Below are positions 8,211 to 29,214 of a stretch of 41,685 nt of DNA, piece by piece. This DNA is from Oscillospiraceae bacterium (GTDB taxonomy: Bacteria; Bacillota; Clostridia; Oscillospirales; UBA929): NCBI GenBank assembly GCA_031271665.1, contig JAISVI010000060.1, positions 1-41,685 on the forward strand. The letters run 5' to 3'. The notes under the pieces are model-generated. The model was not told the origin of the DNA. It did not search any database and saw only the letters and a program-made list of their open reading frames with translations. The translations under genes and the position numbers were made by a program. The stretch's first letter is position 1, and the number at the start of each line of letters is the position of its first letter.

Positions 8211-8223
8211 AAAAACCTCCTTT

Positions 8224-8354
8224 TGATAATTGACAATGAACAATTGACAATTATTAGTATTCGGGGCTTTGAGAAATGTTTGATTCCGAGTTCAATCTTG
8301 AAACTAGTCCTAATTGTCAATTGTCAATTGTTAATTGTTAATTGTTAATTGTCA
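8224..8354. repeat. Heptamer tandem repeats (TGACAAT/ATTGTYA) in two inverted arms
   Basis: Four TGAYAAT/GAACAAT units at 8224-8251 and six ATTGTCA/ATTGTTA units at 8313-8354. Confidence 0.9.
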
Positions 8355-8721
8355 ACTCCGCCGCGGCTTTGCGGATAATTTCAAGCGCTTCGGACGGGGA
8401 AATGGGTTCGTCCTCTTTTGGCGGTTCGGGGTCTTCCGGGGTAAAGACCCCCGCGCCGCGCCCAAGCAGTTCAAGCGCCTTCATCTTGTCGTAAAGTTTG
8501 AATTTAAGGCTGCCGTCCTTCGATACCGTGATCTCCGAAATGGGGCCGCCGTCCACTTTGCGCGAGTCTTTAAGGATGTACTCCTGCCTTGGCGGTTCTT
8601 CTCCGTCTTTGACCGTGCGGTATTCAAGATAGTCGGTGACGTCGGCAAAGGCGATGCGGCGAAGCTGGTCAAGCACCGCTTCCCCGACCGGCTTTTCCGA
8701 ATTTTCCGGTTTCCGTCTCAT
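8338..8721 (-). CDS. Terminase small subunit (short)
   Basis: VLDQLRRIAFADVTDY...ISEITVSKDGSLKFKLYDKMKALELLG matches the C-terminal signature of Firmicutes phage TerS. ATGA overlap with the upstream gene; lies upstream of terL. Confidence 0.8.
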   Translation of the reverse strand: MRRKPENSEKPVGEAVLDQLRRIAFADVTDYLEYRTVKDGEEPPRQEYILKDSRKVDGGPISEITVSKDGSLKFKLYDKMKALELLGRGAGVFTPEDPEPPKEDEPISPSEALEIIRKAAAELTINN

Positions 8722-9140
8722 GCCGCGTCCCTCCCGTACCCGGCCGCCATCAGGCAAAGCGCCTGGGCATGAAGCCGATGGACATGGCGCACCGAAAACG
8801 AACACTGCTCGGCAACGGCCTCCCACGTGGAAAACCCAAGGTAATGCGCCTCCATAACGGCGCGGTGACGGGGGTCGGGAAGCGTTCTTTCAATAAGTTC
8901 CTGCACACTTCGGATAAGTACGCCGTAGTCAAGCACGTCCGCGACAAGCGCCTCGCGCAGTCTCTCCAGCTCGGCGCGCGCCGCGTCAAGCCGCGCGGAG
9001 CCGGGAAGCGCGCAAAGACTTTTCGCAAGCGCCTCCAAGCGGGTAATGCGGGTCTTCTTTTCGTTAAGAGAGCGCGCCGCCCCCCGCGGCATGTTAAGCG
9101 CGCGCCTGACGGCCCAGACGGACGGGTCATTTTTGTTCAT
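8718..9140 (-). CDS. Phage late-transcription regulator-like protein (DUF1492/ArpU-like sigma-region-4 HTH)
   Basis: Coiled N-terminus, then LPDPRHRAVMEAHYLGFSTWEAVAEQCSFSVRHVHRLHAQAL. Canonical position immediately upstream of terS. Confidence 0.75.
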   Translation of the reverse strand: MNKNDPSVWAVRRALNMPRGAARSLNEKKTRITRLEALAKSLCALPGSARLDAARAELERLREALVADVLDYGVLIRSVQELIERTLPDPRHRAVMEAHYLGFSTWEAVAEQCSFSVRHVHRLHAQALCLMAAGYGRDAA

Positions 9141-9424
9141 GCCGCGCCGCCCCCCGCTCGCAGATTCCGCGTGTCGCTCATAAACCGTATAAATTCCGGC
9201 GTGACAGTCTCGGCAAATTCCAAAAGTTCCTCGCGAGTGGCGTCGGTGAAAATATATTCCGCCACGCAAGCCCCGTGCAAAAGACCGTCCGGGCAGGAAA
9301 CAACCTCGTCATCCGGCCACAGCGGCCCGCCGCACTGCACACAGTATTCCGGTTCATTCAGACGCGTATCCTCAAAGGGTTCACCGCCCGCACATTGCGG
9401 GCAGCCGCACAAATAATTGTTCAT
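9137..9424 (-). CDS. Small Cys/His-rich phage-type zinc-finger protein
   Basis: CGCPQC...CVQC...C...HGAC; AAGGAG RBS; ATGA overlap with the next gene. Confidence 0.7.
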   Translation of the reverse strand: MNNYLCGCPQCAGGEPFEDTRLNEPEYCVQCGGPLWPDDEVVSCPDGLLHGACVAEYIFTDATREELLEFAETVTPEFIRFMSDTRNLRAGGGAA

Positions 9425-9530
9425 GGCTCTCCTTCTTCTATTATTGTCAAGCAGTCTGTATACTGCGCTTGTACGCGCTGTTATGACATGCGCGGTAATT
9501 TGTTATAAAAATATTTGTCCATGTTATTCT

Positions 9531-9566
9531 TTTTCTGTTGACAATTGTCAAAGAAAATGTAATAAT
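9531..9566 (+). promoter_or_regulatory. Palindromic operator / candidate repressor-gene promoter
   Basis: Perfect 14-bp palindrome TTGACAATTGTCAA (9538-9551) flanked by TTTTCT/AGAAAA. On the plus strand it reads TTGACA-N17-AATAAT. Confidence 0.5.
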
Positions 9567-9609
9567 TATGAATGGTATGTGGCCCGTACCCAGACAAGCC
9601 ATCGTTGAG

Positions 9610-9638
9610 ATTATAGCACAAACGTTTGGTTTTGTCAA
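9610..9638 (-). promoter_or_regulatory. Consensus sigma-A promoter pointing into the packaging operon
   Basis: Minus strand TTGACA-aaaccaaacgtttgtgc(17)-TATAAT with an extended -10 TG. Confidence 0.8.
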
Positions 9639-9684
9639 CCCAGTGTTTCCCATACTTAATTATTTTACAAGGGGGATTATATCA

Positions 9685-10044
9685 ATGCTTCCCGAACAAC
9701 TAAAACTGCTTCCCGAAAGAGTCAAAAATCTTCGCGAAAGCCGCGGCTACAGCCAGCGCGTTCTTGCCGGAATGCTCGGCGTGTCCCAACAGACGATTGC
9801 CGGTTGGGAAAGGTCGCGGACAAGCCCCGACAGACGAATGGTTTCAAAAATGGTCGGCATCTTCGGTGTCACCTCGGACTATCTGCTTGGTATAAGCGAT
9901 TCCCGCCACGGCGAAGCCAGCGAAAAAGACCGCGCATATCTGGAAATGGCCAGAACCCTTCGTGAATACGGCATTACGCCCGAAGAGCTTGAGGTTATTA
10001 TGGGCGCGCACAAAAAGTTTATGGAGCTTACAAGCAAGCACTAA
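9685..10044 (+). CDS. XRE-family HTH repressor
   Basis: RVKNLRESRGYSQRVLAGMLGVSQQTIAGWERSRTSP...FGVTSDYLLG; divergent from the phage-like operon. Confidence 0.88.
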   Translation: MLPEQLKLLPERVKNLRESRGYSQRVLAGMLGVSQQTIAGWERSRTSPDRRMVSKMVGIFGVTSDYLLGISDSRHGEASEKDRAYLEMARTLREYGITPEELEVIMGAHKKFMELTSKH

Positions 10045-10098
10045 GGGTTACGATTTTCACGGGCCGTGCGGGTTTTCCTAAAAACCTTGCAAAAAATT

Positions 10099-10135
10099 AA
10101 ACCCGCCCCGGCATTGGCCGCAGGCGGGTTTTTTC
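10099..10135. terminator. Probable bidirectional intrinsic terminator between xre and ftsH
   Basis: AAACCCGCC...GGCGGGTTT stem flanked by A-rich and T-rich tracts, between convergent genes. Confidence 0.7.
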
Positions 10136-10156
10136 TTGGTTTCACAGTATTGCGTT

Positions 10157-12022
10157 CTATGTCGGGACTTCGACCTCATAGCCGTCCGTACCCTCGTCGG
10201 GCATACGCCCGGTTTTGAAGTAACGCTCGAACTCAACCGAGTCCATCGTTTCGTGTTCAAGGAGATAGTCGGCCACCGCGCGAAGCTTATCCATATGCGC
10301 GGACAGAATCGACTCGCAGCGTTCATAGGCGTTGTCCACAAGGCTTTTTATCTCGCGGTCGATCTGCGCGGTGCTTTCTTCCGAGAACGCGCGGGTGTGG
10401 CCGTAATCGCGTCCGAGGAAAACCTCTTCGTTGTCGGTGCCGTAGTTAATCGGCCCGAGGATATCGCTCATGCCGTATTTTGTGACCATGCTGCGGGCGA
10501 TGCTTGTAACCTTTCTTATATCGCTTGACGCGCCGGTGGATATGTCGCCAAGCACAAGCTTCTCCGCCACACGCCCCCCCAGAAGGCCGACCATGCGGTC
10601 AAGCATCTCGTTCTTGCTTACAAAGTCCTTATCCTCTTCGGGAAGGGTTATCGTCATGCCGCCGGCCATGCCGCGCGGGATTATCGAAATCTGGTGAACG
10701 GGGTCGGAATGTTCAAGACTGCGGATTGCCACGGCGTGTCCCGCCTCGTGATAGGCGGTAAGCTTCCGGGACTTTTCCGTGACGACACGGCTTCTCTTCT
10801 CCGGTCCGGCGATAACCTTTATCATGGCCTCTTCAAGCTCGCTCATGCCAATCGCGCGCTTAGAGCGCCGGGCGGCCAGAAGCGCCGCCTCGTTAAGAAG
10901 GTTTTCCAGATCCGCGCCGGTAAAGCCGGGCGTAGTCTTCGCGACTATGTTAAGGTCAACGCCCTCGTCAAGCGGCTTATTCTTTGCGTGAAGCTTAAGA
11001 ATAGCCTCGCGTCCCCGGATGTCCGGGATGCCGACATAAACCTGGCGGTCAAAGCGGCCCGGGCGCAGAAGCGCGGGGTCAAGGATGTCAACGCGGTTTG
11101 TCGCGGCGAGTATAATAACGCCCTCGTTCGCGGAAAACCCGTCCATTTCGACAAGAAGCTGGTTAAGCGTCTGCTCGCGCTCATCGTGTCCGCCGCCCAT
11201 GCCCGCGCCGCGGTGACGACCCACGGCGTCGATTTCGTCGATAAAGATTATCGACGGCGATACCTTCTTTGCCTCTCCGAACAAGTCGCGCACGCGCGAC
11301 GCACCCACGCCGACATAAAGCTCTACAAAGTCCGAGCCGGAGATTGAAAGGAACTGCACGCCGGCCTCGCCCGCGACGGCTTTCGCCAGAAGCGTCTTGC
11401 CGGTACCCGGCGGGCCGACAAGCAAAACGCCCTTCGGTATCCTCGCCCCAATCTCAACAAAGCGCTTGGGCGACTTCAGAAATTCGACGATCTCGTGAAG
11501 CTCTTCCTTTTCCTCTTCCGCGCCTTGGACGTCGTTAAAGGTGTATTTCTTCTTCTCGTCGCTTACAAGGCGGGGATTGGCGCGCTTAAAGGTCATGGCG
11601 CGGCTTTCGCCGCCGCCGGTGCGGTTCATCATAAAGAACCAAAGCGCGATAAACACCACGATTATAAGCACGTACGGGATGAACATGACCCACCACGGCG
11701 GTTCCCACCCGGGCTTATAGTCATATTCCGTAAGCTTGCCCTGCGCCGTCTGCGCCTCGATCTCCGCGCCCAGATCCTGACGGAAAAACTCAATGCTTAG
11801 AAGCTTATAGGACTTTCTCGTCTTATCCTTCATATACATCGTCATCTGGCCATTTGCCTCGATCACAAAGCTTTCGACCTGTTCCTGACGGAAGTCCCGC
11901 AAAACCTCGGAATACTTCATCGGTTCGGGTTTGTTCGCATCGTAAAGAACGCTGACCACCACCACGAGAATGATGATGATCACCAGATAAAACAGAATGT
12001 CCTTCGGGTCGGCTTTTTTCAT
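10157..12022 (-). CDS. ftsH: ATP-dependent zinc metalloprotease FtsH
   Basis: Two TM segments; [24 protein letters not shown] and HEAGH motifs. Confidence 0.98.
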
Positions 12023-12130
12023 AACACCCTCCCGTGGTTTTCTTTGTTAAAAAGAAAATCACGCAAAAGAAAATTATCTCAGACTGACGTCATAGTCGTG
12101 CATCCATGCGCCATGTTGCCCGCAACCTGA

Positions 12131-12679
12131 CTATCTAATGGCTTTTTTGGAGATTACGGCCACATAGGGAAGATACCTGAAGCGCTCGGCATAGTCAAGG
12201 CCGTATCCGACGACGAACTCGTCCGGAATGGAAAAGCCCCGGTAATTGGGCGTTACGGGCATTCTTCTGCGTTCGGGCTTGTCAAGAAGCGCGCACAGCC
12301 GGACAGAAGCGATTTTCTTGCCCGCCATCAAGTTCATAATATAACTTAAAGTAACCCCGCTGTCAAGGATATCCTCGATAATAAGCACATGGCGGTTTTC
12401 AACCGGCATATCAAGGTCTTTTATCACCTTGACGTCGCCCGTAGTCTGCGCCCCCATAGCGTAGGAGGACACCGCGAGAAAGTCCGCCGTACAGGGAACC
12501 GTAATCCGGCGCATAAGGTCGGCCATAAAGACAAACGACCCCTTCAAAACACCCACTATCACAAGCTCTTTACCCGCGTAATCCCGGCTTATTTCCGCCC
12601 CAAGCTCACTAACCCTCTGCGCAAGTTCCTCCTCGGAGATAAGCACCCTCTCCAAATCCTCGTGCAAACAAACCCCCAC
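12131..12679 (-). CDS. hpt: Hypoxanthine phosphoribosyltransferase
   Basis: VLKGSFVFMADL, IIEDILDSGVTL and FVVGYGLDY motifs; tilS-hpt-ftsH synteny. Start may be TTG at 12667. Confidence 0.96.
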   Translation of the reverse strand: MGVCLHEDLERVLISEEELAQRVSELGAEISRDYAGKELVIVGVLKGSFVFMADLMRRITVPCTADFLAVSSYAMGAQTTGDVKVIKDLDMPVENRHVLIIEDILDSGVTLSYIMNLMAGKKIASVRLCALLDKPERRRMPVTPNYRGFSIPDEFVVGYGLDYAERFRYLPYVAVISKKAIR

Positions 12680-12698
12680 CGAATCTCCCCCTTAAAAA

Positions 12699-12751
12699 AC
12701 TGTTCGTTGTTAACTGTTAACTGTTCGTTGTCAATTGTTCATTGTCAATTG
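12699..12751. repeat. Heptamer tandem repeats at the tilS/hpt junction
   Basis: ACTGTTC GTTGTTA ACTGTTA ACTGTTC GTTGTCA ATTGTTC ATTGTCA ATTG. Confidence 0.88.
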
Positions 12752-14020
12752 AATACAAACCGTCCGCTTCCCCTCCCGCGGGGCGCGCGCGCGGTCAACG
12801 CCGAAGCCGGAAACCGCGATGACCCCCGCGTCGTCTGCGACCACCGGGATTGCGCCACGCCTTTCAAGCGGGATTTTCTCGTCGATAAACAGTTTTTTAA
12901 GCGTTTTTGTCCCGCCGCGCCCCGGAAAGGCGGCTTTGTCGCCGCTTTGCCTGCTTCGTACGCGGACAGCGCCCCTTATTGTATCACCGCAGACATAAAA
13001 TGTATTGAACGAATTGTTAACAACGCCGGGCTGCGCCTCGCCTACGTTTACGCTGATGCCGCTTGGAAGTCCGCTTGGCTGCGCTTTGCCGACAATAAGC
13101 GCGCCGTACACCCGCCGCGCGCGCAAATTGCCCGGCAAGTCGGCCGCGGCGTGGGGCGACTTGCTTGCGCAAAGCGCTAGCAGCGCGTTTATATGCGCGC
13201 TGTTCGGGGCGGCAAGACCCGCCGCGCGGCACATCTCCCTAAGCACGCGCGAAGAAAGCGAGGGGTGCAGTTCCAAAAGGCGCGATACCGGAAAAGAACC
13301 GTCGCCTTCGCGGCGAGAGGCAAGTTCCTGCCCGGCAAGGCCGCTTAAAAACTCTTCGTCCCCGGCGAGAAGGCTTGCCGCGCGTCCGGCGGCGGCCTCG
13401 GCGTTCGGGTTTATCCCGCGCAGCACGGGAAGCACTTCGCGCCGCAGCAGATTGCGCCGGAACGCGGGGTCGGAGTTGCTTTCGTCCTCGCGGTATGAAA
13501 GCTTATGCGCAAGCGCGTACTTTAGAATCTCTTCGCGCGTTACCGAAAGCAGCGGGCGAAGCACGGTGACGCCGCCCGTCTCCCTTCGCTGCGGTATGCC
13601 GCGCAGTCCCTCCGGCCCGGTTCCGCGCGTAAGGTTAAGCAGCATCGTTTCCAGATTGTCGTTCGCGTTATGCGCCGTAAGCAGGGTGTCATAGCCGGAT
13701 TCGCGCGCCGCGCCAAGCAGAAAGTCATAGCGCAGGGCGCGCCCCGCCTCCTCTATGCCCATACCGCGTTCCCGCGCCGCCGCTTTGGCGTCGCCGCGCC
13801 CCACGGCGCAGGGGATGCCGTATCCGCCGCAAAGCGCGCGGACAAACGTCTCGTCCCCGTCGGCGGCGGGCCGCAGTCCGTGGTGGAAATGCGCCGCGCC
13901 AAGCGCCGCAAGCCCGCCGCTTCTCCAAAGAAGAACGCACATATGCAAAAGCGCGGACGAATCCGCGCCGCCGGACACGGCGCACAGCACGCGGCTTTCC
14001 GGCGCAAGGCCAAGGGTCAT
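12731..14020 (-). CDS. tilS: tRNA(Ile)-lysidine synthetase
   Basis: AVSGGADS PP-loop, HHGLR, RYDFL, TAHNANDNLET, RPLL, EDESN and RNLLR motifs. Start MTLG after GGAGG. Confidence 0.95.
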   Translation of the reverse strand: MTLGLAPESRVLCAVSGGADSSALLHMCVLLWRSGGLAALGAAHFHHGLRPAADGDETFVRALCGGYGIPCAVGRGDAKAAARERGMGIEEAGRALRYDFLLGAARESGYDTLLTAHNANDNLETMLLNLTRGTGPEGLRGIPQRRETGGVTVLRPLLSVTREEILKYALAHKLSYREDESNSDPAFRRNLLRREVLPVLRGINPNAEAAAGRAASLLAGDEEFLSGLAGQELASRREGDGSFPVSRLLELHPSLSSRVLREMCRAAGLAAPNSAHINALLALCASKSPHAAADLPGNLRARRVYGALIVGKAQPSGLPSGISVNVGEAQPGVVNNSFNTFYVCGDTIRGAVRVRSRQSGDKAAFPGRGGTKTLKKLFIDEKIPLERRGAIPVVADDAGVIAVSGFGVDRARAPREGKRTVCIQLTMNN

Positions 14021-14122
14021 CGGGGATACCTCCGCATACTGCTTTAAAAATGCCGCGGCAGAGCCGCCGATCCGCAAGCGCGGAATGGTATATCTTCGGA
14101 AGATAATACCCGCTGCGGGGTT

Positions 14123-14151
14123 ATTATAGCACAGCCGCCGCGCCCGTTCAA
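14123..14151 (-). promoter_or_regulatory. Putative sigma-A promoter of tilS-hpt-ftsH
   Basis: Minus strand TTGAAC-N17-TATAAT with extended TG. Confidence 0.65.
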
Positions 14152-14159
14152 GCCGCTTG

Positions 14160-14206
14160 AAATTATGAAGGGAAAATAACTTGTAAATTATGAAGGGAAA
14201 ATAACT
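14160..14206. repeat. Perfect 22-bp direct repeat
   Basis: AAATTATGAAGGGAAAATAACT at 14160-14181 and 14185-14206. Confidence 0.9.
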
Positions 14207-14237
14207 GCATAAAATCCCCCCGCCTGCCGCCATACTA
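14207..14237 (+). promoter_or_regulatory. Putative sigma-G promoter of spoVAC
   Basis: GCATAA-N18-CATACTA matches the sigma-G consensus; spoVA is sigma-G controlled in Bacillus subtilis. Confidence 0.6.
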
Positions 14238-14259
14238 AGGCAAAAGGGGGGGATTATCG

Positions 14260-14709
14260 GTGAAAATGACAAACGCGCAGTATGCCGAGCATGTGAAGAA
14301 GGTGTCGCCGAACAGCGCCCTTGGGATGGACATGCTAAGGGCGTTTTTAGTCGGCGGGAGCATATGCGCGCTTGGCGAGGCGTTCAGGCAGCTTTACCTT
14401 TCGCTTGGGCTTGGGGAAAAGGACGCCGGGCTTTTAACCTCGGTGTCGCTTATGTTCATAGCGGCCGCGCTGACGGCGCTTCACCTTTACGAGAAGTTTG
14501 CCAAAGCGGGCGGGGCGGGGATGCTTGTGCCGATTACGGGGTTTGCAAACTCTATGGCCTCGGCGGCGATAGAGTTCAGAAGCGAGGGGCTTATAACCGG
14601 AACGGCGGTGAAAATGTTCAGCATCTGCGGCCCGGTGCTTGTGTTCGGAACCGCCGCGAGTACGCTTTACGGCCTTATATCGTGGGCGGTGCAGCGCATT
14701 TTCGGCTAA
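14260..14709 (+). CDS. spoVAC: Stage V sporulation protein AC
   Basis: AFLVGGSIC, GGAGMLVPITGFANSMASAAIEFRSEG and MFSICGPVLVFG motifs. Confidence 0.92.
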   Translation: MKMTNAQYAEHVKKVSPNSALGMDMLRAFLVGGSICALGEAFRQLYLSLGLGEKDAGLLTSVSLMFIAAALTALHLYEKFAKAGGAGMLVPITGFANSMASAAIEFRSEGLITGTAVKMFSICGPVLVFGTAASTLYGLISWAVQRIFG

Positions 14710-16453: not shown

Positions 16454-16575
16454 GGGCTATCCCCCAAATACTTTTCTAAGGTAAATTACACAACCGGGGA
16501 GAACCCCGACAGAAGCCTTGCCGGTTTCCCCGTATGTCGCCATTTTTCCGTCTTTATCATTAAGAGGAGTTACGC

Positions 16576-18245: not shown

Positions 18246-18311
18246 CACGCCCACCTCCCTCAATCACGCCCATTCTATTATACAGCATTTGTTCCCGATT
18301 TTCAAAAGAAA

Positions 18312-19481: not shown

Positions 19482-19562
19482 AAATCACCCCGTAAAGAAC
19501 CCTGTCCGGCGGATTCCGCCGCGCCCGCGAAGAGCGGCCGCCATGCCCGCGAAGAGCCGCTG

Positions 19563-19591
19563 TGGACATAATGTCCGGGCTGTGCTATGAT
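19563..19591 (+). promoter_or_regulatory. Putative sigma-A promoter of holA-rnmV
   Basis: TGGACA-N17-TATGAT with extended TG; palindrome GGACAT-A-ATGTCC over the -35. Confidence 0.55.
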
Positions 19592-19612
19592 TGCTTTATT
19601 GAGGTGAACGCG

Positions 19613-20635: not shown

Positions 20636-20638
20636 CGC

Positions 20639-21229
20639 ATGATACGGATAAACGAGGTTATTTTGGTCGAGGGGCGCTATGACAAAAACGCCCTTAAACA
20701 GGCGGTTGACGCGGTCGTCCTTGAAACGCGCGGCTTCGGCGTGTTCCGCGACGAAGAACTGCGCGCGCTTCTAAGGCGGCTTGCCGATAAGCGCGGCATT
20801 ATAGTTTTAACCGACAGCGACAGCGCCGGTTTCTTAATACGCAACCACCTTAAAGGCATTCTGCCGCCGGGGCGCGTAAAGCACGCCTTTATCCCGGACA
20901 TCCCCGGGAAAGAGCGCCGCAAACGCGCCGGAAGCGCCGAGGGGAAACTTGGCGTAGAGGGAATGTCCCCGGAAGCGCTTATAAAAGCCCTTTTGGACGC
21001 GGGCGCGACGGTCGCGGGCGAACATTGCGAAGAAACGCCGCGCGGCGGCATAACCAAGGCGGACATGTTCGCCTTGGGACTAAGCGGAAGCCCCGACAGC
21101 GCCCAAAGACGCGCCAAGCTTCTTAAAAAGCTTGCCCTCCCCGAGCACATGACCGCCAACGCCCTTCTGGAAACGCTTAACCTTCTGTACACAAAAGAAG
21201 AAGCCAGTCAATTGACAATTGATAATTGA
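20639..21229 (+). CDS. rnmV: Ribonuclease M5-like (Toprim + DUF4093)
   Basis: ILVEGRYDK, GIIVLTDSDSAGFLIR, LGVEG and RRAKLLKKL motifs. Confidence 0.8.
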   Translation: MIRINEVILVEGRYDKNALKQAVDAVVLETRGFGVFRDEELRALLRRLADKRGIIVLTDSDSAGFLIRNHLKGILPPGRVKHAFIPDIPGKERRKRAGSAEGKLGVEGMSPEALIKALLDAGATVAGEHCEETPRGGITKADMFALGLSGSPDSAQRRAKLLKKLALPEHMTANALLETLNLLYTKEEASQLTIDN

Positions 21230-21311
21230 CATTTGACAATGAATATAACAGTGAACGGCCGCCAAAGGCATGGCCGTTCACTGTTAACTGTTCGTTGTTA
21301 ACCGTTAACTG
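21209..21311. repeat. Heptamer repeat arms forming a hairpin between convergent genes (probable terminator)
   Basis: CAAT TGACAAT TGATAAT TGACATT TGACAAT, then TAACAGTGAACGGCC...GGCCGTTCACTGTTA ACTGTTC GTTGTTA ACCGTTA. Confidence 0.85.
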
Positions 21312-21313
21312 AT

Positions 21314-22537
21314 CTAAATCCAGCCAAGCGCCTTTCCGACGCTTAAAAGGAAGCCCGCCGCGACAGCCGAGCCGATAACGCCGGCCACGTTCGGACCCAT
21401 GGCGTGCATCAGAAGATAGTTGCTTGGGTTATACTTCGAGCCGACGTTCTGCGACACGCGCGCCGCCATCGGGACGGCGGACACCCCGGCCGAGCCGATA
21501 AGGGGGTTTACCTTGCCGCCGGTAACGGCGTACATAATCTTTCCGAACAGTACGCCGCCCGCCGTTGAAAACGAGAACGCAAGCAGGCCAAGCCCGATAA
21601 TAAGAAGGGTGCTTACCGACAAGAAGCCGACGTTCTTGCCGTCCTCACCGGCAATATAGCCCACCGAGGTCGCGCCCACCGTGGTGCTTAGGAAGATCGT
21701 AACGATGTTAAGAAGCGCGTTCTGCGCCGTGTCGCTTAAACGCTCGACAACGCCGGACTCGCGGAACAGATTGCCAAGCATAAAGCACCCGATAAGCGGG
21801 GCAACGTCCGGAAGAAGAAGTACGCAGAAAATCGTCACCGCGATGGGGAATATAATCTTGGTTGACTTCGACACGGGCTTTGCCTGGGTCATAACGGTCA
21901 TGCGCTCTTTATTCGTGGTCATCGCCTTCATAATTGGCGGCTGGATAAGTGGGATAAGCGCCATGTACGAATACGCCGCGATGGCAATCGGCCCAAGCAG
22001 GTGCGGGGCAAGCTTTGAGGTAAGGAATATGGCCGTCGGGCCGTCCGCGCCGCCGATAATGCCGATAGAGGCCGCCTCCGGGCCAAGAAACCCGACAAGG
22101 ATGGCAAGGATAAACGCGCAGTAAACGCCAAGCTGCGCCGCCGCGCCGAGAACCATTGACGACGGGCGCGCCAGCATCGGGCCGAAGTCGGTCATCGCGC
22201 CGATACCCATAAAGATAAGGCAGGGGTAGATATTAAGCTTCACGCCCAGATAAAGCACGTCAAGCAGTCCGCCCTCGTGCAGAACCTGGCTGAAACTTAT
22301 CTCCGCCATGGATTTCCCGGCAAAAAGCTCCATATGCATCATTCCGCTTAACGGAAGGTTTGCAAGAAGCATACCGAAGGCGATACCCATAAGAAGAAGC
22401 GGCTCGAACCCCTTGACAATCGCGAGGTACAGAAGCACGCAGGCGATAACGACCATCACCGCGTTTTCCCAGTGGTCAAAGATGCGCACAAAGCCGGAGT
22501 CGGTCCAAAGGCGCTGAAGGATTTCCCCGATATTCAT
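21314..22537 (-). CDS. oadB: Na+-translocating decarboxylase beta subunit
   Basis: FEPLLL, GAMTDFGP, IGIIGGADGPT, GVSAVPMAARV and HAMGPNVAGVIGSA motifs. Confidence 0.95.
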   Translation of the reverse strand: MNIGEILQRLWTDSGFVRIFDHWENAVMVVIACVLLYLAIVKGFEPLLLMGIAFGMLLANLPLSGMMHMELFAGKSMAEISFSQVLHEGGLLDVLYLGVKLNIYPCLIFMGIGAMTDFGPMLARPSSMVLGAAAQLGVYCAFILAILVGFLGPEAASIGIIGGADGPTAIFLTSKLAPHLLGPIAIAAYSYMALIPLIQPPIMKAMTTNKERMTVMTQAKPVSKSTKIIFPIAVTIFCVLLLPDVAPLIGCFMLGNLFRESGVVERLSDTAQNALLNIVTIFLSTTVGATSVGYIAGEDGKNVGFLSVSTLLIIGLGLLAFSFSTAGGVLFGKIMYAVTGGKVNPLIGSAGVSAVPMAARVSQNVGSKYNPSNYLLMHAMGPNVAGVIGSAVAAGFLLSVGKALGWI

Positions 22538-22551
22538 TTGGCCACTCCCCT

Positions 22552-22947
22552 TTATTGAAGCATAAGCAGCGGCGCGCCGGTTTCCACCACCGAGCCCTTA
22601 GAGGTTATTACCTGCGTCACCACGCCGTCGCGGGGAGCCAAGACCTCGTTCTCCATTTTCATGGCCTCGATAAGCACAAGCACCTGACCCTTTTTAACGC
22701 TTTCGCCCGCGGCGACCTTGATGCCAAGGATATTGCCGGGCAGCGGCGACGGTACAACCTCGCCCGCGCCGACGGGCGCGGCGGGTGCCGCGGCGGGGGC
22801 AGGCGACGGGGCAGCGGCGGCGGGTGCCGGGGCGGCAGCCGAAGCCGGTACGGCGGCGTCGGCAACGCTTACGAGTATGGCCTCGCCCTGTTCGACCTCT
22901 ACCTCGTATACCTTTTTATTAAGAGTGACTTTATACTTCATTTTCAC
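22552..22947 (-). CDS. Biotin carboxyl carrier subunit of the decarboxylase
   Basis: Ala/Pro-rich linker and EAMKMENE biotinylation motif. Confidence 0.93.
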   Translation of the reverse strand: MKMKYKVTLNKKVYEVEVEQGEAILVSVADAAVPASAAAPAPAAAAPSPAPAAAPAAPVGAGEVVPSPLPGNILGIKVAAGESVKKGQVLVLIEAMKMENEVLAPRDGVVTQVITSKGSVVETGAPLLMLQ

Positions 22948-22955
22948 TTATCCTC

Positions 22956-23339
22956 CTATATTTCGCGGATTGAGGTAAAGCGCAGGGTGTTAAGCGGGAC
23001 TTTAAGGTCGTCGGCGACGATCGCCATAAGAAGCGCGGCGGTTTGGTCGTCAACGGTGTGCAGGTCAATTTCCCCAAGGCTTCCCTGTGCGGGAATCATT
23101 CCGCTTGTGTCGCGCGCGGGTTGCGCGGCGGCGGTGCCGCCGGACGGAGAAGCGGCGGCGGGGGCTTCCGCCCCTGCGGGGGTCTGCGCGCCTTGCTTGC
23201 GGGCCGTAGACGCGGAGATTATCTTTATTACCACCACAAGCGCGATAAGCGCGAAGAATACCACGGCAAACCCGATAATACTAAGCAGAAGCGCGTCCGA
23301 GATACCAACCTCGCCCTTTGTTCCGGTGAGAAACAGCAT
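22956..23339 (-). CDS. OadG-family (gamma/delta) subunit
   Basis: Single TM (IIGFAVVFFALIAL), Ala/Pro linker, AALLMAIVA...LRFTSIREI. Confidence 0.85.
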   Translation of the reverse strand: MLFLTGTKGEVGISDALLLSIIGFAVVFFALIALVVVIKIISASTARKQGAQTPAGAEAPAAASPSGGTAAAQPARDTSGMIPAQGSLGEIDLHTVDDQTAALLMAIVADDLKVPLNTLRFTSIREI

Positions 23340-23353
23340 CGTTCCTTCCCCCT

Positions 23354-24733
23354 TTATGCTTTGACGATGGAATAGCTTACGCGGTTGCGCTCGATTACCT
23401 CGCGCCTTTCCGCGAATTTCTCGAAGACCTGCGGGAACACGATATAGCTAAGCACGTCTTCGTCATTGCGGGCCTTTTCGCCGATCTCGGCCTTGCCCGC
23501 CGCGAAGCCCGGGGCAAGCGTTTCGGCATAGCGCCCCGTGTAGGGCTTTTCTTCCCCAAGCACTTTCTTTATAAGCGCGGCGCTTACCGTTCCCGGCGGT
23601 GTGCCGTACTCGCCGCGCAGATAGGCCGTAACCTCTTTGGACACGTTCTTATACCTCTCGCCGACAAGGACGTTTGTCGCGGCCTGGACGCCGACGATCT
23701 GGCTTGTCGGGGTGACAAGCGGCGGATAGCCCATATCCTCGCGCACACGCGGAACCTCGGCAAGCACGTCGGGGAATTTGTCCATGGAGTTGGCGGCCTT
23801 AAGCTGTGAGATAAGGTTTGAAAGCATCCCGCCCGGCACTTGGTAGTTAAGGGCGTCCGTGTCCGTCATAAGGACTTTGGGGTCAAGCGTGCCGTCCTTG
23901 ACATAGGATTCCTGAATCGGGCGGAAATAGTCGTTGATTTTCTGAAGCACCGGGTAATCAATGCCGGTGTCAAAGCCCATTTCTTTAAGCGCGAAGGCAA
24001 GCGTTTCTGTCGCGGGCTGGCTTGTGCCGCCGGACATGCAGGAAATGGCGGTGTCGATAACGTCCGCGCCCGCCTCGATGCCCTTCAGATAAGTCATAAA
24101 GGCAAGCCCCGTCGTACAGTGCGTGTGCAGATGCAGCGTAAGCTTGGAGTTCTCTTTGATGGCCTTTACAAGGTCAAAGCATTCCTGCGGGTTCATAATG
24201 CCCGCCATGTCCTTGATGCAAAGGCTTGACGCGCCCATTTCCTCAATGCGCTTTATAAGCCCGACATAGTTTTCAAGGGTATGTACGGGGCTTGTGGTAT
24301 AGGAAATGGCCACCTGGGCTATACCGCCGTGCTTAATCGTCTCTTTGACCGACACTTCCAGGTTGCGAAGGTCGTTAAGCGCGTCGAATATGCGGATAAC
24401 GTCGATGCCGTTCTTAATCGAAAGCTCGACGAATTTGCGCACAACGTCGTCGGGGTAGTGCTTGTAGCCAAGCAGGTTCTGTCCGCGCAGAAGCATCTGA
24501 AGCTTTGTTTTGGTAACGCGCTTTTTAATGTCACGCAGACGAACCCACGGATCTTCGTCCAGATAGCGCAGACAGGTGTCGAAGGTCGCGCCCCCCCAGC
24601 ACTCGAGAGAGTAATAACCGGCCTTATCCATCGTTTCAAGGATATCCTTGAATTTGGAATACGGAAGGCGCGTGGCAATAAGCGATTGCCCCGCGTCGCG
24701 CAGGACTGTTTCCGTGAACTGCACCTTCTTCAT
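23354..24733 (-). CDS. oadA: Oxaloacetate decarboxylase alpha-type carboxyltransferase
   Basis: LRDAGQSL, ECWGGATFD, MLLRGQN, IKDMAG, HTHCT and GYPPLVTPTSQIVG motifs. No fused biotin domain. Confidence 0.88.
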   Translation of the reverse strand: MKKVQFTETVLRDAGQSLIATRLPYSKFKDILETMDKAGYYSLECWGGATFDTCLRYLDEDPWVRLRDIKKRVTKTKLQMLLRGQNLLGYKHYPDDVVRKFVELSIKNGIDVIRIFDALNDLRNLEVSVKETIKHGGIAQVAISYTTSPVHTLENYVGLIKRIEEMGASSLCIKDMAGIMNPQECFDLVKAIKENSKLTLHLHTHCTTGLAFMTYLKGIEAGADVIDTAISCMSGGTSQPATETLAFALKEMGFDTGIDYPVLQKINDYFRPIQESYVKDGTLDPKVLMTDTDALNYQVPGGMLSNLISQLKAANSMDKFPDVLAEVPRVREDMGYPPLVTPTSQIVGVQAATNVLVGERYKNVSKEVTAYLRGEYGTPPGTVSAALIKKVLGEEKPYTGRYAETLAPGFAAGKAEIGEKARNDEDVLSYIVFPQVFEKFAERREVIERNRVSYSIVKA

Positions 24734-24790
24734 ACTATATCCCCCTGTAGTAGTATTCGGGCAAAGCCCGGTATGTCCGTAACGGGAAAG

Positions 24791-24819
24791 ACTATATCAC
24801 AGATAAGTCTGAATGGCAA
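24791..24819 (-). promoter_or_regulatory. Putative sigma-A promoter of the decarboxylase operon
   Basis: Minus strand TTGCCA-N17-TATAGT with extended TG. Confidence 0.6.
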
Positions 24820-25096
24820 TAAAATTGTCAGGCTTTTTTATCGCTGAGTCAGGCTTTTTTATCGCTGCTTTTTTATCGCTGCCGCCGGCCAGTGAATCAA
24901 TATCGGACGCGGCGGGCAGCGCCTCCCCGCGTTCAAGCACCTCTTCAATGCGTCTTTCAAGCACGTCCTTTGCCATAATAACCGCTTCCTCAAGCGTTGC
25001 TCCTTCGGTGTAGCATGGCTGAATATCCGGAAACTTTACAAAGAACCCGCGTTCCTCTCTGGTGAACACGGCAGGATACACGTATTTCATTTTCAT
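24797..25096 (-). CDS. hicB: HicB-family antitoxin, N-terminal domain only (probably truncated)
   Basis: MKYVYPAVF...FFVKFPDIQPCYTEGATLEEAVIMAKDVL...LPAAS. The C-terminus runs through a tandem repeat; no hicA nearby. Confidence 0.75.
   Translation of the reverse strand: MKMKYVYPAVFTREERGFFVKFPDIQPCYTEGATLEEAVIMAKDVLERRIEEVLERGEALPAASDIDSLAGGSDKKAAIKKPDSAIKKPDNFIAIQTYL
24827..24881. repeat. Short direct repeats
   Basis: GTCAGGCTTTTTTATCGCTG twice (24827-24846, 24848-24867) plus CTTTTTTATCGCTG. Confidence 0.9.
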
Positions 25097-25137
25097 GGCA
25101 GAACCCCCTTGGTTATTTCAATTTTGCATCTGTCAAT

Positions 25138-25569
25138 CTATATACAATCATTCATCGGAGAACTGCCAAATTTCCTTTTATGTCCACCGGCTTTCCAGTC
25201 TCTCAATCGTTTTCCGCGTAATGTCGCCTTTGTTGTTGCGGTATTAAGGACTAAGCAAAAATAACAAGTTGCGCCATGCAGTTCGGGTTGCAACATGCGA
25301 TATGACTGCTGCAATTGATCGATAGCATGCTTGATTTTTTTGTAACTTGATAATTCTATGAAGTAAGCAGCGTTTTTGTCGTCATTAATTACCAGAAAAT
25401 CACACCGTATAGGCTGAGTATTTGGAGGGAAAATATCCCCATCCAGTTTATACTGCCGAACGTGATTTTTATCGCAATTGTATGCATTGTGTACGATCTT
25501 GTTTTCTGACGAGATTATATGTTCCTCTTGTGGCGAACAACGAGATTTGGCATTTCTAAGATATTCCAT
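25138..25569 (-). CDS. Hypothetical PD-(D/E)XK-like partner of the AAA ATPase
   Basis: RCDFLV...AYFIELS...HAIDQL; overlaps the ATPase 3' end; AT-rich. Confidence 0.55.
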   Translation of the reverse strand: MEYLRNAKSRCSPQEEHIISSENKIVHNAYNCDKNHVRQYKLDGDIFPPNTQPIRCDFLVINDDKNAAYFIELSSYKKIKHAIDQLQQSYRMLQPELHGATCYFCLVLNTATTKATLRGKRLRDWKAGGHKRKFGSSPMNDCI

Positions 25570-26830
25570 CAAGTTGTGTCTCCTTTTGATGAATGTACTT
25601 ATCGAATAACCAGTCAAAGCTATCATTTATATCTCCGGACACACCATCAATAAGTTCGTTAATAATCAATCCGTCTGTGTCAGACAACGCAACTTTCACT
25701 TGCCTTTCATCTATGTGAAAAGCACCAAATTGTTTAGGTAACAGCCATTTCCGCTTATGAATTCTGCTCTTTACATCTTCGTCTAAGAGCTTGCCACACA
25801 AAAGCAATACATTAAACTGCGCGAGTATATACGGGCTATGCGTTGTTACCATAACCGAGTTTTTCGCGTGCGCAAATCCATTTCTGGCAAATATGCTTAG
25901 AAGCTCAACAATTTTCGCCTGTGCGTCAGGATATAGATGGGCTTCAGGTTCTTCAACTATAAACAGAACATTTCTATTGTGATAAGTCAAATACTGCATA
26001 ATATTCAGAACCCACAGGGCTTCCTGTTGTCCTGATGAAGCAAAGTTGATTTTTACATATTTAGATTTGCCATAATAAAGGCGCTCTTGATAATCCTCAT
26101 ATTTATAAACTCCACCCAAAAGTTTTTCACTCTCACTATGAAGCAAGTTAAATACACGCATCATTTCATCATCCTCTTTATTCGGCGAGGGTGCTGCCTC
26201 CGCAAAGAAGGGCCGTGCCTTAATAATAAGTCTTAGGAATTCACGTGTACTATAGTCAATTTTCTCAGAAAACTCTTTGTCCGCTTGCAACATAAAATAG
26301 TTAAGCACATCTGTAAGCAAAGTAATCATACTTCTGCCAGCAGGAACGAACACAACATCCGCATTATCATCAAAAACTTCAAAAACGCGCTGACTAATGC
26401 GCTCGAAATCTCTTGTGGATATTTGCGTTGTCATCATTTTACCTATATCATACATTTTATCTTCCAGTGAATGACTGAATTCCACGTTGTAATACTTATC
26501 GCTGCTAAGAGTTATGGTAGTTTGCACTTTATCCGAGAAGAAGTATTCCACTTTCATTGTCGAAGGCATAATAAAAGATGGCCCAAATAACAGTTTGAGC
26601 TTTTCTTTCAAAACATGTTGTAGTTCATGTTTGATACTTACACTCTTTCCTTGTATTTCATCTTTTGAAATTAAATCAATCAGCTCGTTTTTAATCGTAC
26701 GAAAAAAATACACTAATCTTACAATCGTGCTTTTACCACTGGCTTGTGATCCCGTGAAAACTAAAAACTCATTCATTTCTATTTCGCATTTAGTTAAGGG
26801 TCCAAAATTGTTGATTGTAATTTTATGCAT
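25556..26830 (-). CDS. ABC-type AAA ATPase (AAA_15/AAA_21, AbiEii/OLD-like)
   Basis: ITINNFGP, GSQASGKST, FVPAGRS, ASSGQQ, IVEEPEAHLYP and VTTHSPY motifs. Confidence 0.88.
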   Translation of the reverse strand: MHKITINNFGPLTKCEIEMNEFLVFTGSQASGKSTIVRLVYFFRTIKNELIDLISKDEIQGKSVSIKHELQHVLKEKLKLLFGPSFIMPSTMKVEYFFSDKVQTTITLSSDKYYNVEFSHSLEDKMYDIGKMMTTQISTRDFERISQRVFEVFDDNADVVFVPAGRSMITLLTDVLNYFMLQADKEFSEKIDYSTREFLRLIIKARPFFAEAAPSPNKEDDEMMRVFNLLHSESEKLLGGVYKYEDYQERLYYGKSKYVKINFASSGQQEALWVLNIMQYLTYHNRNVLFIVEEPEAHLYPDAQAKIVELLSIFARNGFAHAKNSVMVTTHSPYILAQFNVLLLCGKLLDEDVKSRIHKRKWLLPKQFGAFHIDERQVKVALSDTDGLIINELIDGVSGDINDSFDWLFDKYIHQKETQLDGIS

Positions 26831-26862
26831 AACTGCTCCTCTTCATAACAGATTGTGGAAAG

Positions 26863-26892
26863 ATAATATCATAGACTTTCTTGAACTGTCAA
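26863..26892 (-). promoter_or_regulatory. Putative sigma-A promoter of the ATPase island
   Basis: Minus strand TTGACA-N18-TATTAT. Confidence 0.5.
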
Positions 26893-26923
26893 GTTTGAAT
26901 TGATTCAAACGAAACCGCCGACG

Positions 26924-27523
26924 CTACATCTTCCCCCTTACCCGCAGAGGCAGTCCAAGGCGGCGGGCAAGGTTTTCACAGGCGGGCGCGTCGGCTTCGC
27001 CCTCTACAATACTCAAAACAACCTCGGGGATATGGGCTTTCGCTTTAGCGGCAAAATCAAGCACCGCGTCAAACGCGCCCTCGCCGTGTTCGGGGCGGCA
27101 GACGCGCGCGTAGTCCCGCGCGTTCGCGGCGTTAAGGGACACGGACGCGCAGTCGATAAGCCCGTTAAACTCCGGGGTTATGTCGCGCCCCGCGATAAGA
27201 CTTCCCTGTCCGTTTGTGTTAAGGCGCACGCGCATACCCGGCCATTCGCTTTTTATCTGTCTCGCGACACCGGTAAGCGCGTCAAGGCGCTCGGTCGGCT
27301 CGCCAAAGCCGCAGAAAACAATCTCGCCGCAGTCTGCCGCGCCCATCCGGCGCAGCGCGGCAAGCACCTCTTCCTCCTGCGGCTCGCGGTCAAGCCAAAG
27401 GCTTTCCGCCTCGCCCACCGCGCTTTGCCCCTCGCGCACGCAGAAGGCACAGCGGTTTGAACAGCGGTTTGTAAGATTGATATAAAGGTTTTTACCTACC
27501 CTGTACACCGGTTGGAATGCCAA
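26924..27523 (-). CDS. TatD-associated radical SAM protein
   Basis: NLYINLTNRCSNRCAFCVR (CxxxCxxC), LWLDREP, EIVFCGFGEP and RLNTNG motifs. Start uncertain (TTG 27523 or GTG 27508). Confidence 0.88.
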   Translation of the reverse strand: MAFQPVYRVGKNLYINLTNRCSNRCAFCVREGQSAVGEAESLWLDREPQEEEVLAALRRMGAADCGEIVFCGFGEPTERLDALTGVARQIKSEWPGMRVRLNTNGQGSLIAGRDITPEFNGLIDCASVSLNAANARDYARVCRPEHGEGAFDAVLDFAAKAKAHIPEVVLSIVEGEADAPACENLARRLGLPLRVRGKM

Positions 27524-28274
27524 AAAAACCGACCCCGTTTTGAAAAGTAATTTCCGCCGCCTCGTCCGCGCCGACTCCCCAAATCCCCGCAAGCGTTTCC
27601 GTCACGGCGGTAAGCATGGTCGAGTCGCTGCGCGCCCCGCGCCACGGCTGCGGCGCGAGATAGGGCGCGTCCGTCTCGATCATCACGCGCCCGCGCGGCA
27701 CCGCCGTTGCCGCCTCGCGCACCCGACGGGCGTTCGGAAAGGTGATTACGCCGGTAAAGCTTATATACCAGCCCTTTTTGACAAGCTCCCGCGCCATCTC
27801 GGCGCTTCCCGAAAAGCAGTGGAAAACACCGCGCAGCCCCGGAAAGTCGTCTATCGCGCGAAGCGAGTCCGCGTGGGCGTCGCGGTCATGGAAGATCACC
27901 GGGACGTTATGGGCCGCCGCAAGCTGTAACTGCGCGTACAGCGCCCTTTTCTGAACGTCGCGTCCCGGGGTGTCGTAATGGTAGTCAAATCCGACCTCGC
28001 CCAGCGCGACGCATTTTTTGTCTTTAAGCATGGCGGAAAGCATATCGGCGGCGTTTGCGTCAAGGGTGTCGGCGCTTCCGGGATGGACGCCGCAGGCGGC
28101 CCAGACATGGGCAAACTCCCCCGCAAGGGCAACCGCCCTGCGCGAGGAGTCTATGTCGCTGCCGGGATTAAGCACAAGCTCTACCCCCTTAGAGGGCAGC
28201 GAAAGGAGAATCTCCTTCCTGTCGGCGTCAAAGCGCGCGTCGTCGTAATGGGCGTGCGTGTCAAAGAAGCGCAT
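27492..28274 (-). CDS. tatD: TatD-family deoxyribonuclease
   Basis: DTHAH, GVHP, GEVGFDY, HDRDAH, HCFSG and ETDAPYLAP motifs. Confidence 0.95.
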   Translation of the reverse strand: MRFFDTHAHYDDARFDADRKEILLSLPSKGVELVLNPGSDIDSSRRAVALAGEFAHVWAACGVHPGSADTLDANAADMLSAMLKDKKCVALGEVGFDYHYDTPGRDVQKRALYAQLQLAAAHNVPVIFHDRDAHADSLRAIDDFPGLRGVFHCFSGSAEMARELVKKGWYISFTGVITFPNARRVREAATAVPRGRVMIETDAPYLAPQPWRGARSDSTMLTAVTETLAGIWGVGADEAAEITFQNGVGFFGIPTGVQGR

Positions 28275-29127
28275 CGCCGCCCTCGCTTTCGGCGTCCGCC
28301 CTGCCTTGCTTCGCCGCGCCCTTCAGAACCGTCACTTCGCTTTTATGAAAGGTTTTTACCGGCATGTCCGGCGCGGCGTCAAGCCGTACGCTTAACTGCC
28401 CGCGCAGAAGCGATACCCCGGTCACAGTCCCCTTCCCCTGCGGTGTGCGCACAACGGAGTCCGCGCGCGGGGTGTTGGCAAGCAGATCCTCATACGCGTC
28501 CTGCTCGTATTTAAGACAGCACATAAGCCTTCCGCAGGTGCCGGAAATCTTGGTGGGGTTAAGGGAAAGGCTTTGCTCCTTGGCCATTTTAATGGATACG
28601 GGCTGGAACTCGTCAAGGAAGCTTGCGCAGCAGAAGGGTCTTCCGCATACGCCAAGACCGCCAAGCAGCTTGGCCTCGTCGCGTACGCCCACCTGCCTAA
28701 GCTCTATGCGCGTACGGAACACCTGGGCCAAATCCCGCACAAGATCGCGGAAATCAACGCGCCCGTCTGCGGTAAAGAAGAACACTATCTTAGAGCTGTC
28801 AAAGGTGTATTCCACCGTGACAAGCTTCATCTGAAGGCCGTGTTCGCCAATCTTTTTAAGGAATATTCCGGCGGCCTGCTCTTCCTTCTGCTCGTTTTTG
28901 CGCAGAGTTTCCATGTCTTCGGGCGTGGCGATGCGGATTATCTTTCTAAGCGGCGGCACGATTTTCTCGTCCTCGACTTCCCGGCGGGTCATAACGCATT
29001 CGCCGAACTCAAGGCCGCGCTGGGTGTCGGCGATAACTTCCGTACCCTTGCGCAGATCATGTTTTCCCGGGTCAAAGTAATATACGCGCCCGACCTTGCG
29101 GAACCGGACGCCGACAACGGTGGTCAA
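28261..29127 (-). CDS. yaaT: PSP1-domain stage 0 sporulation protein YaaT/RicT
   Basis: FTADGRVDFRDLV, RIELRQVGVRDEA, CGRPFCC and ISGTCGRLMCCLKYE motifs. Confidence 0.95.
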   Translation of the reverse strand: MTTVVGVRFRKVGRVYYFDPGKHDLRKGTEVIADTQRGLEFGECVMTRREVEDEKIVPPLRKIIRIATPEDMETLRKNEQKEEQAAGIFLKKIGEHGLQMKLVTVEYTFDSSKIVFFFTADGRVDFRDLVRDLAQVFRTRIELRQVGVRDEAKLLGGLGVCGRPFCCASFLDEFQPVSIKMAKEQSLSLNPTKISGTCGRLMCCLKYEQDAYEDLLANTPRADSVVRTPQGKGTVTGVSLLRGQLSVRLDAAPDMPVKTFHKSEVTVLKGAAKQGRADAESEGGDALL

Positions 29128-29143
29128 CAGTTTTCCCCCTTAG

Positions 29144-29214
29144 GGATAATTGACAATTGACAATTGTTTCTGCCAACTATTAATCGTCCATTGTCAATTG
29201 TCCATTGTCAATTG
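29144..29214. repeat. Heptamer repeats in two inverted arms at the holB/yaaT junction
   Basis: GGATAAT TGACAAT TGACAAT ... ATCGTCC ATTGTCA ATTGTCC ATTGTCA ATTG. Confidence 0.88.

Follow-up and report, generated by a model that had tools for sequence, protein, structure and literature searches.

Short shared protein tails in an Oscillospiraceae genome as a probable by-product of a dispersed TTGACAA repeat at gene ends

How do four unrelated proteins encoded on one stretch of bacterial DNA come to end in nearly the same six residues? The question is raised by contig JAISVI010000060.1 of an Oscillospiraceae bacterium (GenBank assembly GCA_031271665.1), which we analysed over its whole length of 41,685 nucleotides (the window) as contig C141 of genome G000 (2.03 Mb, 56% GC, 168 contigs). 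A first-pass annotation of the window had noticed that the products of terS, tilS, rnmV and holB share a C-terminal peptide of the form (Q/E)LT(I/M)(D/N)N, and that tandem heptamers write it. The annotation suggested that the heptamers target stop codons in a fixed register or that the peptide is tolerated or selected as a tag. We find that the heptamers form a dispersed, non-coding and stop-rich repeat of gene ends, and that the tails are very probably its passive by-product.

We confirmed the four tails by reading the sequence and its open reading frames (ORFs). The terS gene (8338-8826, minus strand) closes with GAG TTG ACA ATT AAC AAT TAA, giving ELTINN and a stop, and tilS (12731-14272, minus strand) closes with CAA TTG ACA ATG AAC AAT TGA, giving QLTMNN and a stop. 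RnmV (20639-21229, plus strand) ends in QLTIDN and HolB (29194-29994, minus strand) ends in QLTMDN, each before a TGA. Pfam matches support the four gene names: TerS matches Terminase_2, TilS matches PP-loop, TilS and TilS_C, RnmV matches Toprim and DUF4093, and HolB matches DNA_pol3_delta2. At all four sites Tandem Repeats Finder (TRF) reported a period-7 array in the TTGACAA sense relative to the gene, which bears out the earlier claim that such arrays write both tail and stop in one orientation. Direct reading also showed, as had been stated, that the long frame of a pure array has six codons before its stop (CAA TTG ACA ATT GAC AAT TGA), and that the other two frames stop after 1 or 3 codons.

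We then characterized the repeat across the genome. Among period-7 units AATTGAC leads by far, at 866 perfect 14-mer positions against 29 for the runner-up. A scoring scan returned 155 arrays, with 138 arms scoring at least 13, compared with 3 in a shuffled genome; TRF independently returned 123 AATTGAC arrays and about 23 arrays of related units. The 138 arms comprise 532 heptads, including 354 TTGACAA, 82 TGAACAA and 36 TTGATAA. An arm holds about 3-7 TTGACAA heptads with a median length of 33 nt, and the most frequent copy is an exact 33-mer, CAATTGACAATGAACAATTGACAATTGACAATT, with TGAACAA as its second unit. The ends of the arms are sharp, as 91 of 138 begin (C)AATTGA and many finish in GACAATT. 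Arms occur alone, as convergent inverted pairs, or beside a GTAG-headed palindrome of the repetitive extragenic palindromic (REP) type.

The sequence of the arm makes it a translational stop in one direction. In forward sense each canonical heptad contains a TGA, whereas direct reading of the reverse sense, TTGTCAA, shows no stop in any frame. Because 7 and 3 are coprime, each forward frame meets a stop once every 21 nt. All three frames stop within the arm in 69 of the 138 arms and two frames do so in 66. Arm sequence stops translation within at most seven codons in most frames.

The assembly is 94% complete. We observed that 30 of 112 elements lie at contig edges beside REP clusters (for example C2:99, C26:216, C68:196, C72:52, C120:124 and C161:4). 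The assembly seems to break in repeat clusters, and the counts of arms and REPs are lower bounds. In the one DNA run covering the window (contigs only), contigs likewise break at arms, with many loose ends from other arm copies, and we found no length variants of the arms in that run.

To place the arms relative to genes, we called 1838 genes with our own codon and dicodon log-odds model. A same-sense stop lies inside the arm or at most 19 nt upstream in 65 of 138 arms, whereas 1000 rounds of random placement over non-coding DNA and gene termini gave 15.7 +/- 3.7 (maximum 31). Sorted by the position of the stop, 46 arms contain a same-sense stop, 18 have one 0-19 nt upstream, 12 have one 20-200 nt upstream and 62 have none. 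For the 61 elements with two called neighbours, 48 spacers are tandem, 13 are convergent and none is divergent; divergent spacers are 141 of the 1522 spacers and 17% of spacer length. Solo arms beside a gene 3' end run in gene sense in 26 cases and in the opposite sense in 3, and arms beside start codons are in reverse sense.

The first-pass annotation had stated that the arrays are always entered in the same frame, and we found this not to hold among the 46 stop-holding arms. The length that the arm contributes up to the stop is 1-7 nt in 11 arms, leaving a stop alone or a single N; 8-15 nt in 14 arms, leaving LDN or IDN; 18-23 nt in 16 arms, leaving QLTxxN; and 30-35 nt in 5 arms, leaving tails that end in EQLTIDN. 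GDVN was also seen on arm-capped genes. When frames were ranked by how deep they read into the arm, 12 genes used the shortest, 18 the middle and 16 the longest, and arms with a strictly canonical CAATTGA boundary gave 9:6:9 for the three frames. That all four cases in the window agree reflects local sampling: they drew attention because their tails matched. The idea of targeting to stops thus survives in part: arrays are enriched at stops genome-wide, but genes use all three frames about equally, so no fixed register holds. The shared tail is a genuine and frequent feature, with a [QE]LT[IM][DN]N C-terminus in 16 of 1838 genes (0.0002 expected from composition, none internal) and the looser L[TIA].[DN]N in 22, yet it is one of several frame-dependent outcomes.

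We considered whether (Q/E)LT(I/M)(D/N)N could be a selected C-terminal tag, a degron or interaction motif shared by a protein regulon. Its presence at the end of 16 genes and never internally would suit a tag, as would the mild over-representation of QLT-type tails (21 against 14.8). However, arms give N, IDN or GDVN before the stop on other genes, the carriers are unrelated housekeeping and phage genes, and most copies of the same nucleotide arm are entirely extragenic, with no gene stop in 92 of 138 arms. An ssrA-like tag, which proteases recognise, would be conserved with a non-polar end, whereas these tails end in polar DN or NN and differ by frame; the tag region of the genome's own transfer-messenger RNA, in a stretch located by ARAGORN and translated by us, reads ...VLLAA. 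Orthologues also lack the tail, as described next. We found no support for a selected tag, and we regard it as extremely unlikely.

TTGACAA arrays are present in 8 of 31 related genomes and were not found in the two genomes of the same genus. We read the orthologous ends of HolB, TilS and RnmV in nine relatives, five of which carry arms elsewhere, and found the array or the tail at 0 of 24 ends (one further RnmV locus, the tenth, was unreadable because its contig ended first). In the five arm-bearing relatives, 0 of 15 orthologous gene ends have an arm. The comparison of orthologous C-termini called for earlier thus gave orthologues without tail or array. Orthologues in G001, G002, G004 and G005, and likewise in the five arm-bearing genomes, end at about the same place with residues of their own, and the tails occupy the place of these last residues. 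Further, 80 metagenome loci of RnmV relatives (887 kb) held no arm and 3 heptamer arrays of any unit. We conclude that the tails replace native ends and that arm positions are lineage-specific.

Two observations concern heptamers of other units at the same genes. At the HolB/PSP1 junction of the same-genus genome G002 (L006, contig C50), a (GTTAGTG/GTTAGTT)n array supplies the TAG stop from its first unit. In locus L161, an (AATGCAA)n array with an inverted partner directly follows the RnmV gene.

Capping of genes by arms was also seen in a sample of 40 of the listed array places from two genomes of other genera, G017 and G003. The sample contained 49 arms, and 34 of these cap an ORF of at least 100 amino acids. 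The capped ORFs have 10 QLT-type, 8 IDN-type and 4 N-type tails, and 12 stop just before the arm. The exact 33-mer was found in 11 loci of other lineages (Oscillospiraceae, other Clostridia, Tissierellaceae, Bacteroidales, Prevotella and one cyanobacterium), several beside GTAGGG palindromes. In the cyanobacterium, Crocosphaera, convergent arms surround a shared core, which is about 95 nt long in two copies. Perfect 4-unit arrays occur at gene ends on 17 viral-contig stretches (L083-L099), and the exact 33-mer was found in none of the viral contigs.

A further rival is that the arm is a mobile element whose insertion machinery recognises stop codons in one fixed register. The strong enrichment at gene ends, the unoccupied divergent spacers, the sharp ends (91 of 138 starting (C)AATTGA) and the identical 33-mer in 11 loci of other lineages would be expected of such an element. 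Its register is contradicted by the stops, whose position varies from 1-35 nt within the arm to 0-19 nt ahead of it, with every frame represented, and by 18 arms that follow an independent TAA, TAG or TGA stop. In addition, a target-site duplication is not consistently visible, as GGGGACGAT-like direct repeats flank only the REP-linked subset, and no transposase co-distributes with the arms. We therefore consider insertion in a fixed register very improbable.

The REP-associated tyrosine transposase (RAYT) was examined as a candidate mobiliser of the arms and set aside, because RAYT-like genes occur in 4 of the 8 relatives with arms and in 10 of the 23 without and so show no co-distribution. 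REPs themselves are frequent companions of the arms. A GTAGG-headed GC palindrome lies no more than 80 nt downstream of 55 of 138 arms, compared with 8.2% of random intergenic positions, and many arms have GTAGGGG(A)CGATG(T/G) as one flank and TGGGGGACGGATTGTAGGGG as the other. In all, 414 GTAGG-headed REP-like units are present in the genome against 31 in a shuffle, and 17 of them supply a TAG as gene stop. Even so, arms and this REP family are independent among the 31 relatives: G001 has 36 REPs and no arms, and in G003 and G017 arms are present but REPs of this family are absent.

Adjacent arms form 26 convergent and no divergent pairs, with 5 pairs both on the minus strand and 1 both on the plus strand. 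The DNA between paired arms is 15-225 nt long and mostly unique. In each of the 26 convergent pairs the two arms fold onto one another (median 27 bp; median z -6, range -2.8 to -15). At 16 operon junctions the distance from the end of the distal arm to a motif resembling a Shine-Dalgarno (SD) sequence has a median of 6 nt, so the element takes up the space between stop and SD. Two elements of the window, at TerS/TerL and HolB/PSP1, belong to this type. The first folds over 8223-8355 with 28 arm-arm base pairs, a minimum free energy of -40.5 and z of -5.5, and its left arm has 0 nt to the SD-like motif and 12 nt to the ATG. In the second, the left arm ends 7 nt from a GGGGG SD-like motif of the PSP1 gene.

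These hairpins raise the possibility that arms are cis-elements kept by selection, which as pairs in a 3' UTR or operon junction would stabilise the upstream mRNA, or would slow termination where the stop falls in or close to the stem, with the tails still incidental. Consistent with such a role, every pair folds, only tandem and convergent spacers are used, and junctions are filled from stop to SD; in E. coli, REPs less than 16 nt from a stop are reported, with reference to an earlier study, to lower translation and stall ribosomes (PMC12306157). However, 86 of the 112 elements are solo arms without a detected partner (28 of the 86 lie at contig edges), positions are not conserved among relatives, and no T-run or other terminator feature accompanies the arms. 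We regard a retained cis-element as possible but less likely than not.

A role at the other end of genes, as promoter or protein-binding arrays, was also considered. TTGACA matches the -35 hexamer of sigma-70 promoters, and CAATTG is palindromic. A consensus scan found TTGACA-17-GACAAT-type matches inside arms at 9-10 of 12 positions. These matches are a by-product of the 7-nt period, and no conserved -10 element follows the arms. More importantly, 0 of the 61 classifiable elements lie in a divergent spacer, the class that contains promoters only, and arms in convergent spacers would drive antisense transcription. We rejected the promoter reading on these spacer-class grounds, and consider arrays of this kind highly unlikely. 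Separately, the window has a single perfect 14-nt palindrome, TTGACAATTGTCAA, at 9538-9551. It coincides with the -35 hexamer in a promoter-like match at 11 of 12 positions (TTGACA-17-AATAAT with TG), and a 12-of-12 match lies close by on the other strand, at 9638-9610.

Taken together, we favour the explanation that the tails are passive by-products of the arms, and we propose the following sequence of events. An arm would come onto or just upstream of a native stop, by insertion or by expansion. The native last residues would be lost, and translation would run only to the first TGA or TAA that the arm offers in frame. The residues left would be N, IDN or QLT(I/M)(D/N)N, set by frame alone. 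Arrangements that lack a quick stop would presumably be purged by selection. In 66 of 138 arms one frame is open throughout, but only 1 called gene reads through an arm, which we take as a sign of a filter on read-through. Arms are best read as behaving like REPs and bacterial interspersed mosaic elements (BIMEs) of gene 3' ends and operon junctions, and may act as an mRNA 3' hairpin, as a brake on translation termination, or be purely selfish.

Several points count against this explanation or weaken its contrasts. QLT-type tails make up 21 of the 46 stop-holding arms against 14.8 expected from equal use of the frames that stop inside each arm (one-sided p ~0.02 by simulation, uncorrected), and a similar trend in relatives (10 of 22) leaves room for a weak frame or tail preference. 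The placement null is uniform per nucleotide, and a per-spacer null would give more adjacency and a less extreme contrast because the median tandem spacer is 18 nt. Our home-made gene calls miss some genes and over-extend some starts. Finally, we found no empty site: the same-genus genomes are 43-66% identical in these proteins, the nearest genomes reach no more than 50-66%, and a metagenome scan with RnmV for near-identical relatives found nothing closer than 66% identity. With relatives too distant to compare filled and empty sites, the choice between insertion and growth in situ stays an inference.

A stronger form of the insertion step is that arms are a horizontally spreading, self-limiting "ORF-capping" module with mobilising machinery of its own that homes near stop codons. 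The 33-mer across lineages and the 4-unit arrays on viral contigs would support it, and we consider it unlikely on balance. If it were true, the QLT excess would be real and would arise from selection for the six-residue tail or from register-biased insertion.

These results have consequences for annotation. About 2.5% of called genes (46 of 1838) take their stop, and often their last residues, from a non-coding repeat, and annotators, as well as those who infer function from C-terminal motifs held in common, should regard these tails as debris of a repeat. It belongs with the poorly understood, phylogenetically scattered heptamer arrays, and its rules are unusually clean: gene 3' ends, never divergent spacers, opposed pairs convergent, and frequent coupling to REPs. 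With such rules, tests of the class for functions in mRNA ends, translation termination or mobility become easier.

The features of the window are collected in the table below.

Positions of heptad arms and associated features at the four tail sites (window coordinates)
Feature	Position	Strand	Description
Heptad arm, TerS	8312..8355	-	gene sense TTGACAA, TTAACAA x3, TTGACAA x2; offset 18; codes tail ELTINN (8341-8358) and TAA stop (8338-8340); right arm of convergent pair
Spacer/loop, TerS/TerL junction element	8253..8311	.	59 nt, unique
Left arm, TerS/TerL pair	8223..8252	+	abuts AAGGAGG SD of minus-strand terminase large-subunit gene
Heptad arm, TilS	12728..12751	-	TTGACAA TGAACAA TTGACAA; offset 21; codes tail QLTMNN (12734-12751) and TGA stop (12731-12733)
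Degenerate heptads, TilS arm extension	12698..12727	-	CGAACAG/TTAACAG/TTAACAA type; TRF periods 7 and 21
Heptad arm, RnmV	21209..21240	+	tail QLTIDN (21209-21226), TGA (21227-21229); TRF; offset 21
GC hairpin CAGTGAACGGCC...GGCCGTTCACTG	21249..21283	.	between convergent RnmV and OAD-beta, heptad array on each side
Degenerate heptad array, OAD-beta side	21276..21311	-	TRF consensus GTTAACT, 5.1 copies; inverted sense
Heptad arm, HolB	29182..29214	-	TTGACAA TGGACAA TTGACAA TGGACGA; offset 21; codes tail QLTMDN (29197-29214) and TGA (29194-29196); right arm of convergent pair
Left arm, HolB/PSP1 junction pair	29148..29166	+	15-nt spacer; 18 arm-arm base pairs, z -5.0

The degenerate heptads of the TilS site run toward the SD of the downstream phosphoribosyltransferase gene and have no inverted partner, and those on the OAD-beta side begin 2 nt past the OAD-beta TAG stop (21314-21316). 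The TerS/TerL pair lies in a prophage-like stretch (6723-8826) with the small and large terminase subunits, which indicates that arms also colonise phage DNA. In the DNA run covering the window, the contig omits 12075-12131, 57 nt of the spacer between the genes at 10157-12022 and 12131-12679; this skip may be an indel polymorphism unrelated to the heptads. We obtained no Rfam match in the window at the gathering score.

Five arms lie inside called ORFs, all in the open TTGTCAA sense, and three of these reflect over-extended starts upstream of an HtpG-like, a MutS-like and another gene. The other two, at C62:1764-1796 and C134:9644-9676, lie inside long open frames, where they are translated as NCQLSIVNCQ between apparently separate domains or gene pieces, with a PP-loop-like SGGKDS after one and an E3-binding-like sequence after the other. 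Either these arms were inserted in frame or the calls join separate genes.

We identified six RAYT-like ORFs with the NF047646 model, all below its 80-bit cut-off, including one in the window at 32633-33229 (minus strand). This ORF and that at C70:17767-18012 have an HUH motif and a Y motif, and both contain in-frame GTAG-headed REP palindromes. The REPs at the window ORF are at 33081-33106 and 33284-33309, one of them just upstream of it. A convergent doublet of GTAGGGGCGACCG-type REPs, REPIN-like, is present at 39538-39563 (plus strand) and 39590-39615 (minus strand) in the spacer before the gene at 39747. A link to heptamer-armed hairpins that enclose PF05635 genes (23S-IVS four-helix bundle) was considered and rejected, as PF05635 had no match in the 94%-complete genome of the window.

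Finally, we compared the repeat with known systems. Cyanobacterial short tandemly repeated repetitive (STRR) sequences are heptanucleotide tandem repeats. The arms share with these and with other period-7 simple sequence repeats (SSRs) a tandem period of seven, intergenic location and sporadic phylogeny, and differ in their units. Period-7 arrays are the dominant long SSR class in some genomes, according to the 2007 survey by Mrazek as summarised in PMC4679880. In a literal-sequence literature search, with subscription journals outside its scope, we found no printed description of TTGACAA arrays; the one match was a cloning primer. Miniature inverted-repeat transposable elements (MITEs) have terminal inverted repeats around a conserved core and a target-site duplication. 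The 26 convergent arm pairs have mostly unique spacers, and GGGGACGAT-type direct repeats flank only REP-linked arms, but two Crocosphaera copies do share a core of about 95 nt.

REPs offer a closer parallel in placement. According to Di Nocera et al. 2013 (PMC3733652), they are high-copy and extragenic, lying between unidirectional and convergent genes, downstream of coding regions. That source and the RepRanger paper (PMC12306157) define a REP as an imperfect palindrome of 20-40 bp that carries an unpaired GTAG or CGTC tag and is linked to RAYT transposases, and describe clusters of REPs (BIMEs), inverted dimers that fold into larger hairpins, occasional intragenic copies, many copies near stop codons and, in A. 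variabilis, dimers embedded in longer palindromes. The arms follow the same placement rule (48 tandem, 13 convergent and 0 divergent of 61). In contrast, a single arm is an AT-rich tandem direct repeat lacking the GTAG/CGTC tag and any internal palindrome; tag and palindrome belong to the neighbouring GC hairpins, and arms and REPs are not co-distributed.

Of the systems described so far, the TAACTGA heptamer repeats of marine Beggiatoaceae, some Cyanobacteria and Bacteroidetes come closest (MacGregor 2015, PMC4679880). They are dispersed sets of 2-6 tandem heptamers, at more than 100 sets per genome and patchy across phyla. They have stops in the three forward frames and an open reverse strand, and encode the peptide LITDN before a stop. 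Most are reported to sit just before a start codon, in forward sense to the gene that follows; the genome studied has one inverted repeat, and 13-14 of about 169 sets overlap the end of the upstream gene. The likeness extends to short dispersed tandem sets, some split by one variant heptamer (here the second unit, TGAACAA), to stops in all forward frames with an open reverse, and to the resemblance of LITDN-stop to LTIDN-stop. The unit is not the same, since the rotation CTGATAA differs from TTGACAA at 2 of 7 positions and from the TTGATAA variant at 1 of 7. Further, arms here face the stop of the upstream gene (65 of 138), form convergent hairpin pairs and have GTAG palindromes alongside, and those near start codons are in reverse sense, whereas TAACTGA sets are forward. 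From these comparisons, we conclude that the TTGACAA family is a real and well-behaved repeat, with TAACTGA as its closest known counterpart, and that the peptide tail is incidental to it.

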